DNA of 32,000 bases from Buchnera aphidicola (Mindarus japonicus). GTDB lineage: Bacteria > Pseudomonadota > Gammaproteobacteria > Enterobacterales > Enterobacteriaceae. Under the pieces are notes generated by a model. It searched no databases and had not been told where the DNA came from. It saw nothing but the letters and a program-made list of their open reading frames with translations. Numbering within the stretch: the first letter of the stretch is position 1; each line of letters begins with the position of its first letter. Position numbers and translations under genes: made by a program. Where the stretch lies: assembly GCF_039393905.1 (NCBI RefSeq), contig NZ_CP135030.1, positions 1 to 32,000 on the forward strand. The letters run 5' to 3'. Shown here one piece after another: positions 2,877-22,497 of the stretch.

Positions 2877-3149
<273 letters not shown>

Positions 3150-11217: not shown

Positions 11218-12330
11218 TTATAGACGTAATGGCATAATTATATAGTGAATAGAGAACTCATCTTTTTCTTTAATTTGAACACTAGTAATTGGATTAGAAA
11301 ATAAAAGAGAAATATATTTCTTTTCTATAACATTTAAGATGTCTATTAAAAAATTAATATTAATAGATATTTTTATGTCTTCTTGTTGATAGTCAGTATT
11401 TATTATAGCTTTTGCTAATTCATCTTTTTGATTAGTAGTTATTAACTTTATCTTTTTATATGAAATGTAAAAAGTTACACTAGAAAGTCTTTCGTGAGAC
11501 AATATTGAAACTCTAGAAAGAGCTTCTTTTAATTCAATTGTATTAACATTAACTGAAGTATTATTTTTTGTAAGCAATATGTTTTTGTAACTTGGAAAAC
11601 TTCCTTCAATTATTTTAGTTATGAATGTTATTTCTTCTAGTTTTATTAAAACATTTTTTTTTCCAATAAAAATTATTAGTTTTGAATCTAGATTATCTAT
11701 TAAATGTATTAATTCTATTATTCCTTTTCGAGGAATAATTTTTGAAAATTTTACAGATTTTGGAATTTCTTCTATAATTACACTTGAAGCGATAGCCATA
11801 CGATATCCATCTGTAGCTATTACTTTGCATTTATTTTTATTAATTTTAAATAACACTCCATTTAAATAGTATCTAATATCTTGATTTCCCATACTAAAAT
11901 AAGTATAAAGTAACATTTTTTTAAATAATTTTTTAGAAATTGAAATTTTTGATATACATGTAAAATTCAAAATTTTGGGGAAATTTTCTACTGATGAAGT
12001 TGATAACATAAAAGAACAATTTTCAGTATTGATAAATAATTTCTTTTTTAATAGAGTAATATTTAATAATGTTTTTTTAGGAAGTTTTCTGCAAATATTT
12101 AATAGTTTTCTTCCTGAAACAAGAATCTCTCCCTTTTCAAAAACTTTAATCTCTTTAATTTTAATTGTAATTTCAATTTCTAAATTAGTTGCAGTTAACA
12201 AAAGAATATTTTCTTTGTTAATTTTTAATAAAACATTTGAAATAATTGGAAAAGATAAATTTTTAATTAATATTCCATTAATTTTTTGTATTGGTTTTAT
12301 TAAAAAATTTTGATATATAGAAAATTTCAT
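11218..12330 (-). CDS. dnaN: DNA polymerase III beta sliding clamp
   Basis: 370 aa starting 5 nt downstream of dnaA. The C-terminus ends MPLRL like E. coli DnaN (MPMRL), and the position in dnaA-dnaN-gyrB is conserved. Confidence 0.92.
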   Translation of the reverse strand: MKFSIYQNFLIKPIQKINGILIKNLSFPIISNVLLKINKENILLLTATNLEIEITIKIKEIKVFEKGEILVSGRKLLNICRKLPKKTLLNITLLKKKLFINTENCSFMLSTSSVENFPKILNFTCISKISISKKLFKKMLLYTYFSMGNQDIRYYLNGVLFKINKNKCKVIATDGYRMAIASSVIIEEIPKSVKFSKIIPRKGIIELIHLIDNLDSKLIIFIGKKNVLIKLEEITFITKIIEGSFPSYKNILLTKNNTSVNVNTIELKEALSRVSILSHERLSSVTFYISYKKIKLITTNQKDELAKAIINTDYQQEDIKISININFLIDILNVIEKKYISLLFSNPITSVQIKEKDEFSIHYIIMPLRL

Positions 12331-12335
12331 AATTA

Positions 12336-13698
12336 TTATGAAGATAATAGTTTAATTAAGTTAGAAAAGTCTTCTTTTATAGAATACGTATGTTTTTGAA
12401 GTTGATATATTTTTTTACAAGCATGTAATACAGTAGTATGATCTCTTCCTCCAAATGCTTCACCAATTTCTGGTAGACTATGATTTGTTAATTTTTTGGC
12501 AATCATCATTGCCATTTGTCTAGGTCTGGTAATAGACCGAGAACGTTTTCGAGATAAAATATCAGATATTTTTATCTTATAATATTTAGCAACTGTTTTT
12601 TGAATTTTTTCAATAGTTATAATTTTTTTTTGTAATTCAAAAATATGGCGTAAAGCATCTTTTGCAAAGTCAATTGTAATCATTTTACTGCTAAATTTTG
12701 CATTAGCAATGATGGTATTTAAAGCGCCTTCCAGTTCTCGAATATTAGATTTTAATTTTTTAGCTATAAAAAAAGCTACTTCATTTGGTAAATAAACATT
12801 TTTTTCTTCTGCTTTTTGCATAAGGATGGCTACTCTTGTTTCTAATTCTGGTGGTTCAATAGAAATTGTTAATCCCCAGCTAAACCTTGATTTTAGTCGA
12901 TCTTCTACTCCTATAATTTTCTTAGGGTAACGATCAGAAGTTAATATTATCTGTTGGTTTTTATCAAAAAGAGCATTAAAAGTATGAAAAAGTTCTTCTT
13001 GTGATCGTTCTTTATTTGCAAAAAATTGTATATCGTCAATTAATAATGTATTTACAGAACGATAATATGTTTTAAACTTTTCAATTTCATTGTTTTTTAA
13101 TGCTTTCACCATATTTTGAACAAAAGATTCTGAGTTCATATAAATTACTTTTGCATTATAAGAATTACTCAGAATGCTATTTCCTACAGCATGTAAAAGA
13201 TGTGTTTTACCTAATCCTGTTTTTCCATATAAAAAGAGGGGATTATATGACTTACCTGGATTTTTAGCAATTTGAAAAGCTGCAGCTCTTGCTAATTGAT
13301 TGGATTTACCTTCTATAAAATTTTTAAAACTATATTTACTATTAATTTTACATGTTTTAGAAAATGAATAAAAAGAAGAATAAATATCCCATTTTTTACG
13401 AATAAAAAAATTTTCTTTATTATTTATTTTTTTTTTTTAATTTTATGGTAACGTTTTTTTTAGTTATTTTAAAATTTAATATAGGAGAATTATTTTTACA
13501 AAGATTATTTAATAACTGATGCAAAATTTTTAAATATTTATCTTTTACCCAGTCTAGTACAAATCGGTTAGGAGCATGCAGTTCTAATATATTATTTTTT
13601 AATTTTGCTTTTAAAGGTCGTATCCACATACTAAATTCTGTAGGAGATAATTCTTCCTGTAATTGAATAAGACATTTTTTCCAAAGTAAAAGGCACAT
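12336..13698 (-). pseudogene. dnaA: Chromosomal replication initiator DnaA, interrupted by a frameshift in an A12 tract (possibly rescued by slippage, or a sequencing error)
   Basis: An N-terminal ORF (probable start at the ATG at 13698, [29 protein letters not shown], matching E. coli [28 protein letters not shown]) stops at 13420. The shifted frame is open from 13436 and encodes [17 protein letters not shown]...[22 protein letters not shown] (Walker A), continuing into the 267-aa ORF 12336-13139, which ends in the DNA-binding domain. The two frames join only if the homopolymer at 13427-13438 has 11 rather than 12 residues. Confidence 0.85.
13427..13438 (-). repeat. A12 homopolymer (T12 on the + strand) at the dnaA frameshift site
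   Basis: Counted directly: 12 consecutive T at 13427-13438. This is the longest homopolymer I found inside a coding region of this window. Confidence 0.95.
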
Positions 13699-21756: not shown

Positions 21757-22497
21757 TCAATATTCATTACCTTGAACATGTTTTCTATAACTGTTCCATT
21801 CAAAAGTTAACCATAAACTTTTTCCTAATTTCATTCGATCAATTACTCTTTCTCCTAATAATAATTTCATTCCTCTATGATCTAAATTCGATAACATACC
21901 AGTAGATTTTTTAGAAGAAGATCTTCTATCGACGATTTGATTGATAATTACTTTTTCATATCTGGATTCTGTTTGCATTCCTATTTCATCTATCATTAAT
22001 AGATCTACACTGCTTAATTCATTTAATAAGCGTTCTTCTGTCATTGTAGTATTTCCATTAAATGTACTTTTTATATTTGACATTAGATCTGCTACAGTTA
22101 CAATGAGTACACTTTTTCCATTTAAAATTAAATAATTTCCGATTGCTGAAGCAAGGTGGTTTTTTCCTGTTCCTGGTCTTCCTGAGAAAATAAAGCTAGC
22201 TATACTAGAGTGAAATTCTTCAGCATATTTTCTTGTTGCTTTGACAACTTTTAAATGTCCTTCATGTTCAATTTTATAATTTTCAAAAGAACAATTTATA
22301 TATAGTTCTTTTATTCCTGATCTTCCAAGTATTTTTTGCATTTTCATCGCTTTATTTTTTCTAATAATTGATTCAGAATCTATTTTTCCTTGTGCTTGAT
22401 TCCAATTAAGTAAATCCATTTCATTTTTAAATTTTGGTTGAATATGATTAGGAATTAATTTTTTTATTCTTTTAAAAATATTAGTATAGTTTTTCAT
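21757..22497 (-). CDS. dnaC: DNA replication helicase loader DnaC
   Basis: 246 aa with Walker A GRPGTGKNHLA, Walker B LLMIDEIG, YEKVIINQIVDRRSSSKKSTGML and a C-terminal GNEY. Colinear with E. coli DnaC. Confidence 0.94.
   Translation of the reverse strand: MKNYTNIFKRIKKLIPNHIQPKFKNEMDLLNWNQAQGKIDSESIIRKNKAMKMQKILGRSGIKELYINCSFENYKIEHEGHLKVVKATRKYAEEFHSSIASFIFSGRPGTGKNHLASAIGNYLILNGKSVLIVTVADLMSNIKSTFNGNTTMTEERLLNELSSVDLLMIDEIGMQTESRYEKVIINQIVDRRSSSKKSTGMLSNLDHRGMKLLLGERVIDRMKLGKSLWLTFEWNSYRKHVQGNEY

Follow-up and report, generated by a model that had tools for sequence, protein, structure and literature searches.

Genes that are broken by a single insertion or deletion within a long run of adenines, but are otherwise intact, form a known class in the AT-rich genomes of insect endosymbionts. 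Such poly(A) frameshift genes, rescued by slippage, were described in Buchnera and Blochmannia (Tamas et al. 2008; Wernegreen et al. 2010, as presented in the passages of PMC5009743, PMC3017870 and 10.1101/2022.08.28.505559 that deal with them). The share of corrected transcripts at these tracts is given as 12-50% in the relevant part of PMC5009743 and as approximately 30% full-length transcripts in PMC3017870, and curators of Buchnera genomes annotate poly(A)-frameshifted genes as functional, citing the two original studies (10.1101/2022.08.28.505559). The present analysis concerns dnaA, the gene of the replication initiator DnaA, in Buchnera aphidicola (Mindarus japonicus). The gene lies in the window, that is, the stretch of 32,000 nucleotides that makes up the first 32 kb of the chromosome (RefSeq assembly GCF_039393905.1, contig NZ_CP135030.1), and is split into two frames at a run of twelve adenines (A12). 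The break belongs to the known class of conserved poly(A) frameshifts, and the class of mechanism is likewise already known; what is added here is the initiator dnaA as the affected gene, a genus-wide break with two different out-of-frame lengths, and the domain II linker of DnaA as a recurrent site of breakage. The evidence makes it probable that the A12 tract is real, old and out of frame, and that full-length DnaA is made by slippage on the A run, with both the slippage and its yield inferred.

The dnaA locus shares with the genes of Tamas et al. (2008), as these are characterized in the cited passages, a single indel in a long A run of an otherwise intact gene, a frameshift conserved between species and purifying selection on both sides of it. 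More specifically, three of the five features that define this type are found at dnaA, namely an indel in a homopolymer of approximately 9 nt or more, conservation without decay, and two-sided selection. The locus differs in that two out-of-frame lengths (A12 and A10) occur within one genus, and in that dnaA is not discussed as a frameshifted gene in the sections of the three sources that treat such tracts. Essential replication genes with homopolymer breaks common to species, for which slippage correction at reduced yield was proposed, are found in Blochmannia vafer and B. floridanus (dnaX and dnaG; PMC3017870); these are other genes in another symbiont, and most Blochmannia are without dnaA (PMC4389277), whereas here dnaA is strongly constrained. 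In the Buchnera of Periphyllus, pheA carries a clade-wide poly(A) frameshift and is treated as functional by its curators (10.1101/2022.08.28.505559), but this is a metabolic gene and not an initiator. The gamma and tau products of dnaX, which arise by -1 ribosomal frameshifting in Escherichia coli and by transcriptional slippage at A9 in Thermus thermophilus (PMC5009743), likewise involve an A run and a short and a long product from one replication gene. There the event is programmed and directional, with flanking signals in E. coli, and the zero-frame product is full-length; at dnaA, in contrast, no stimulatory structure was found, sister species need corrections in different directions, and the product of the zero frame is truncated. 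Loss or erosion of dnaA itself in Wigglesworthia, Baumannia and the Blochmannia of Camponotus (PMC4389277) concerns the same gene under reductive evolution in insect endosymbionts, but those lineages are without a functional gene, whereas both halves of the present dnaA evolve as slowly as gyrB.

Both frames of dnaA are readily recognized on the reverse strand of the window (Table 1). The N-terminal frame begins with an ATG at 13698-13696 and ends in ...IKLKKKNK before its TAA, while the C-terminal frame, displaced by one base (+1) relative to the first, contains the Walker A motif GKTGLGKT and closes with a stop at 12338-12336. According to Pfam, the N-terminal piece is a DnaA_N domain (PF11638, residues 5-64, E 3e-19) and the C-terminal piece consists of Bac_DnaA (PF00308, 2.4e-71) and Bac_DnaA_C (PF08299, 9e-34). 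When the pieces are aligned with an intact Buchnera DnaA of 454 residues, the N-terminal one covers residues 1-89 and the C-terminal one residues 89-453, the latter at 72% identity, and neither alignment contains a gap; identity to the DnaA of Enterobacterales in a protein homologue search is 71-72%. Because the two pieces abut at residue 89 with no gap between them, dnaA is complete except for its frame, and the position of the break is, by this alignment, the start of the domain II linker. Domain I, the AAA+ domain with Walker A and B motifs, and the helix-turn-helix of domain IV are thus all present, and only a single continuous frame is absent.

An earlier reading of this DNA, made from the letters alone (the sequence-only reading), had described the same structure, and its description is borne out. 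Translation confirms that the N-terminal frame runs into A12 and stops at 13420, that a second frame open from 13436 carries the rest of DnaA with its Walker motif, and that this frame has no ATG until 13139, past the P-loop; the P-loop is at codon 70 and the ATG at codon 99, and GTG and TTG are likewise lacking before it. Arithmetic on the coordinates, (13698-12336+1-1)/3, shows that removal of one A leaves 454 codons including the stop, which are the 453 codons for residues that had been predicted for an A11 repair; in this genome the two frames would be joined by a tract of A11 or A14. The placement of dnaN 5 nt downstream of dnaA agrees with the list of open reading frames, and NCBI and Logan both contain the exact DnaN protein.

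The chromosome of this symbiont (G000, CP135030) has 541,202 bp, is accompanied by two small replicons and has a G+C content of 23.3%. It was sequenced by Illumina NovaSeq 2x150, and the words dnaA, pseudogene and frameshift are absent from the genome data paper (PMC11193766). The only two other species in its GTDB genus served for comparison: the Buchnera of Mindarus keteleerifoliae (G002, chromosome of 542,511 bp) and a further Buchnera aphidicola (G001, chromosome of 540,092 bp). The DnaN accession of G001, CAL4317663.1, is of the EMBL type, so that its submission route differs from that of GenBank, which is taken to mean another laboratory. In both genomes dnaA is split at the same tract. 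The tract is A12 in G000 and in G002, where the unshifted frame ends AAT AAA TAA and the message must lose one A (or gain two), and A10 in G001, where the unshifted frame ends in a TAG directly after the tract and the message must gain one A (or lose two). A tract of A11 would join the two frames in each of the three genomes, and both dnaA frames are open in all of them. The comparison of tract length among relatives, which the sequence-only reading had proposed, therefore finds every member of the genus out of frame. Because the whole genus carries the same break, it is, on this comparison, old, and was probably inherited from an ancestor that the three Mindarus-type species shared.

Selection on the two halves of dnaA was estimated from the ratio of nonsynonymous to synonymous substitution (dN/dS), calculated pairwise among the three genomes by the method of Nei and Gojobori. 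This ratio is 0.08-0.13 for the N-terminal part and 0.06-0.10 for the C-terminal part, which is level with gyrB (0.07-0.11) and lower than dnaN (0.18-0.30) and yidC (0.17-0.20). Across the dnaA segments dS is 0.44-1.15, and the deficit of nonsynonymous changes is significant for dnaA in binomial tests (p = 1e-6 to 1e-34). When neutral evolution was simulated, 1.3% of runs preserved an open C-terminal frame at 5% divergence, and not one of 5000 did so at a divergence of at least 10%; no second lesion was found in the dnaA of the three species. Upstream of mnmG, all three genomes have a pair of DnaA boxes (TTATGCACA and TTATCCACA) at a constant spacing of 54 nt. The 541-kb chromosome contains just four perfect DnaA boxes, and the conserved pair is probably the minimal oriC. 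The gene for the helicase loader DnaC, which gives the second Bac_DnaA-like match in the genome, has been kept as well.

The break in dnaA is not the only one of its kind in the genus. A scan of the three chromosomes for homopolymers at which one long open frame ends and another begins identified six companion genes (prmC, fabD, fabG, ybeY, dnaX and minC; Table 1), and these and dnaA, seven genes in all, are out of frame in all three species. The halves of the six companions mostly have dN/dS values of 0.1-0.3. Among the genic poly(A) tracts of at least 10 nt on the sense strand of G000, approximately 95 are in frame and 7 are not. Independent random errors would be expected to place a break at the same tract in three genomes approximately 0.03 times, and at least six such coincidences are seen. 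This excess and the differing tract lengths at dnaA, fabG and dnaX are strong evidence that assembly error is not the general cause, and random assembly errors are rejected in that role on the evidence of the three species.

Table 1. Positions of the dnaA features of Buchnera aphidicola (Mindarus japonicus) and of related loci. Plain numbers are window positions; other positions are given as genome, contig or locus, and coordinates. Tract lengths separated by slashes refer to G000/G001/G002.
Feature	Position	Strand	Remarks
dnaA, N-terminal frame	13420..13698	-	92 codons + stop; domain I and first domain II linker residues
A12 homopolymer (T12 on + strand), site of the frame break	13427..13438	-	direct reading
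TAA closing the unshifted dnaA frame	13420..13422	-	two codons past the tract
dnaA, C-terminal frame	12336..13436	-	366 codons + stop; rest of domain II linker, AAA+ domain III, domain IV
dnaN	11218..12330	-	intact; same transcription unit as dnaA; start 5 nt past dnaA stop
dnaC	21757..22497	-	helicase loader; NF005931, 429 bits
DnaA-box pair	G000:C1:540875-540937		beyond the window; immediately upstream of mnmG (window position 1)
prmC	G000:C1:165540-165550		tract 11/11/11
fabD	G000:C1:316879-316888		tract 10/10/10
fabG	G000:C1:317939-317948		tract 10/10/11
ybeY	G001:C1:398232-398242		tract 11/11/11; position is that of the G001 ortholog
dnaX	G000:C1:446025-446040		tract 16/14/15
minC	G000:C1:306736-306745	-	out of frame in all three; tract lengths not simply comparable
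dnaA linker tract of G274	L107: 1499-1521		A23, out of frame; dnaN split too

How a functional initiator could be obtained from this gene is suggested by the C-terminal frame. In none of the three Mindarus-type genomes does this frame have an ATG, GTG or TTG before the P-loop; only ATA and ATT occur there. Because the C-terminal part has no start of its own and is nevertheless highly constrained, it must be translated as a continuation of the N-terminal part after a change of frame. Faithful expression would give only the 92-residue domain-I peptide. Slippage of RNA polymerase on the tract, however, would leave a fraction of the message one A shorter or two A longer, and such messages would encode full-length DnaA of 453 or 454 residues with the junction ...LKKK(K)INNKEN.... 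In E. coli, ribosomes are known to slide on AAA-lysine runs. Ribosomal slippage on the corresponding run of dnaA probably contributes to the full-length product, and in-frame chromosome copies in the polyploid symbiont may contribute too. The linker of domain II, in which the tract is located, is flexible, so that gaining or losing a single lysine there should be harmless, and DnaA would remain functional at a reduced yield.

The correction required in the message is -1 A in G000 and G002 and +1 A in G001, which for the ribosome would correspond to shifts of +1 and -1, respectively. No stimulatory RNA structure was found at the tract when a region of 141 nt was compared with shuffled sequences (z = 0.09). 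The opposite signs of correction and the lack of RNA structure fit non-directional homopolymer slippage better than a directional programmed ribosomal shift. A programmed ribosomal frameshift of the dnaX type was accordingly considered and rejected: the A run is slippery, but it has no flanking stimulators, and sister species require shifts in different directions. Thus, among the three explanations put forward in the sequence-only reading, a real frameshift rescued by slippage is favored; that the frameshift is real is supported by its genus-wide conservation, while slippage as the means of rescue is inferred.

The sequence-only reading had raised early pseudogenisation, with dnaA on its way out as in Wigglesworthia and most Blochmannia. 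Other insect symbionts have indeed lost dnaA or show it in an eroded state (PMC4389277), a Buchnera of Cinara carries multiple breaks in the gene (G201, described below), and several genomes of the same family of at most 0.6 Mb are without it. In the Mindarus clade, however, both halves show dN/dS values of 0.06-0.13 with the frames open in three species at the synonymous divergence given above, an outcome that the neutral simulation never reproduced at a divergence of at least 10%, and there are no further lesions, the DnaA boxes are conserved and dnaC is kept. For these reasons pseudogenisation is rejected and is scarcely credible as an account of this gene; the observation in the sequence-only reading that both halves are well conserved, which it had set against long-standing decay, holds on the same values. 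It might instead be supposed that the initiator is split, with a 92-residue domain I and with domains II-IV started separately, either at a non-canonical codon or through reinitiation downstream of the TAA. Selection on both halves does not by itself prove that they are joined, the dnaA of Candidatus Purcelliella pentastirinorum is without domain I and opens with an ATG of its own ahead of domain III, and G300 has an ATG after the tract, so a DnaA lacking domain I may be viable in some symbionts. Against this, none of the three Mindarus-type genomes has acquired an ATG, GTG or TTG before the P-loop, although with dS of approximately 0.5 there was opportunity for one to arise. In E. coli, moreover, domain I of DnaA must be tethered to domain III for loading of DnaB, and the loader gene dnaC is retained here. 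A split initiator is therefore very improbable, if somewhat less so than pseudogenisation.

Several observations weigh against the interpretation of a real tract corrected by slippage. Every assembly is an Illumina-type consensus across a homopolymer of 10-12 nt. The Logan assemblies, which were made with another assembler, derive from the same samples as the deposited genomes and hence provide no independent sequencing, so that they confirm the consensus and not the biology. The Logan contig of SRR29340236 stops 6 nt upstream of the A12 tract, an end that may reflect a branched graph or length variants among the reads. A genome-wide, error-corrected RNA study of Buchnera, finally, reported no frame-restoring transcription error (PMC5574713). 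The first of the sequence-only reading's three explanations, a consensus error in which the true tract is A11 (or A14) and dnaA is intact, draws on this material: homopolymers of 10-12 nt are error-prone in Illumina libraries amplified by polymerase chain reaction (library method: PMC11193766), and the contig break beside the tract could be counted in its favor. It would, however, require errors of +1, -1 and +1 at one tract in three species, one of which was submitted by a different route. The length A12 is reproduced by the second assembler in two samples, both in contig SRR29340236_29768 (100% identical to G000) and in a contig of SRR29340143 (100% identical to G002), where domain I is called as a separate 92-residue gene. 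Six more genes are out of frame at shared tracts, against approximately 95 other genic poly(A) tracts of at least 10 nt that are in frame. Among 5.8 billion proteins, a set that includes the Logan gene calls, there is no in-frame DnaA more than 72% identical to the C-terminal part; exact protein look-ups return only a 267-residue fragment from an internal ATG (Logan), and the 92-residue N-terminal piece of G000 was not found by exact look-up, probably because its Logan contig ends at the tract. A consensus error is thus unlikely. A further possibility is that the heterogeneity lies in the DNA, with polyploid Buchnera maintaining, by replication slippage, a sizeable minority of A11 copies from which full-length DnaA would be made with no slippage of RNA polymerase or ribosome. 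Tract length does shift in evolution (A12 versus A10 in the genus, and in-frame and out-of-frame congeners in four other genera), and the break of the Logan contig beside the tract fits a branched assembly graph, but the three deposited genomes and both Logan assemblies each give one out-of-frame length, and the literature on such tracts places the heterogeneity in transcripts. Heterogeneity of this kind is doubtful as the sole source of DnaA; it is compatible with slippage on a real out-of-frame tract and may add to it.

A survey of tiny-genome relatives in the same GTDB family indicates that the domain II linker has been affected repeatedly. In at least four further lineages dnaA is split between domains I and III at linker poly(A) tracts: the Buchnera of Taiwanaphis decaspermi (A12), the Buchnera of Chaitophorus populicola (A14 and A11), a Buchnera with a genome of 447,673 bp (A12 and A13), and G274 (Table 1). 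In the last of these the split dnaN consists of frames of 157 and 250 residues that are separated at a lysine run (L107 ~2978-3020). Linker tracts that are in frame occur in congeners or near relatives, namely G012 (A11), G158 and G255 (both A10), G125 (A13) and the Buchnera of Periphyllus (A11 and A12). Linker tracts of at least 10 nt are therefore out of frame in five lineages and in frame in five genomes, a sample that is small and phylogenetically uneven, while dnaA is intact in all 14 of the genomes examined that have no linker tract of this length. These sequences suggest that constraint on the frame is only weak in linker tracts of approximately 10 A or more.

Other states of dnaA were encountered in the same survey. 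Candidatus Purcelliella pentastirinorum (G022, L096), a planthopper symbiont, has a dnaA frame of 348 residues with its own ATG just before domain III, and the region of domain I is full of stops; this looks like a DnaA without domain I. In the Buchnera of Cinara cf. splendens/pseudotsugae (G201, L099/L100), the break in dnaA falls within domain III, at a lysine/poly(A) run, and many stops interrupt the N-terminal region; this may be a genuine case of a Buchnera in which dnaA is a pseudogene. The search gave no match to dnaA at E <= 0.001 in G049, G067, G078 or G092, which are multi-replicon genomes of 0.4-0.6 Mb that are 98-99% complete and belong to the same GTDB family, and G076 has just a weak C-terminal dnaA match of 144 residues.

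Buchnera is usually cited as keeping dnaA, whereas Wigglesworthia and most Blochmannia have lost it (PMC4389277). The present comparison suggests that in a whole clade of Buchnera the initiator would be obtainable only by poly(A) slippage, and yet it evolves as slowly as gyrB. Automatic annotation will wrongly call dnaA a pseudogene in these genomes, and the supply of initiator would have to depend on the efficiency of slippage. The linker of domain II is a recurrent site of breakage in small Buchnera genomes (those of Mindarus, Taiwanaphis and Chaitophorus, the 448-kb Buchnera and the genome with A23), and the value of these loci is comparative: they form a natural series of A10, A11, A12, A13 and A23, in and out of frame, with which the weight of frame in long tracts could be measured. 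A more speculative idea, which is improbable, is that the out-of-frame tract acts as a throttle on the initiation of replication in the polyploid symbiont, giving a low dose of full-length DnaA and mostly the domain-I peptide, possibly as a competing fragment. Hda, SeqA and Dam were not found in the G000 genome, which is 97.5% complete. If such a throttle existed, the linker tract would be held out of frame by selection, or by indifference arising from pervasive slippage, and this would explain why the Mindarus clade moves between A12 and A10 without settling on A11 and why a linker tract of at least 10 nt, where a Buchnera lineage has one, is out of frame in approximately half of the cases.

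Some of the remaining breaks in the genus differ from that in dnaA in being unevenly distributed or unevenly constrained. In minC the N-terminal half has relaxed dN/dS values of 0.5-1.3 and the C-terminal half constrained values of 0.2-0.3, and the gene may be losing its N-terminal domain, judging from these ratios. The gene dnaE is out of frame in G001 (A15, G001:C1:221031-221045) and in G002 (A11, G002:C1:221268-221278) and in frame in G000 (A10). Frameshifts specific to G000 affect queC (A11, G000:C1:440502-440512) and mtnN/pfs (T10, 203244-203253); G001 has a break in mtnN as well, located at another tract (A10, G001:C1:203145-203154), which suggests that loss of this gene is under way. 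Only in G001 are rimM, rlmE and others broken, and only in G002 is an rnr-like gene. The larger of the two small contigs of G000 is a leucine plasmid, the closest relative of which is that of the Buchnera of M. keteleerifoliae.

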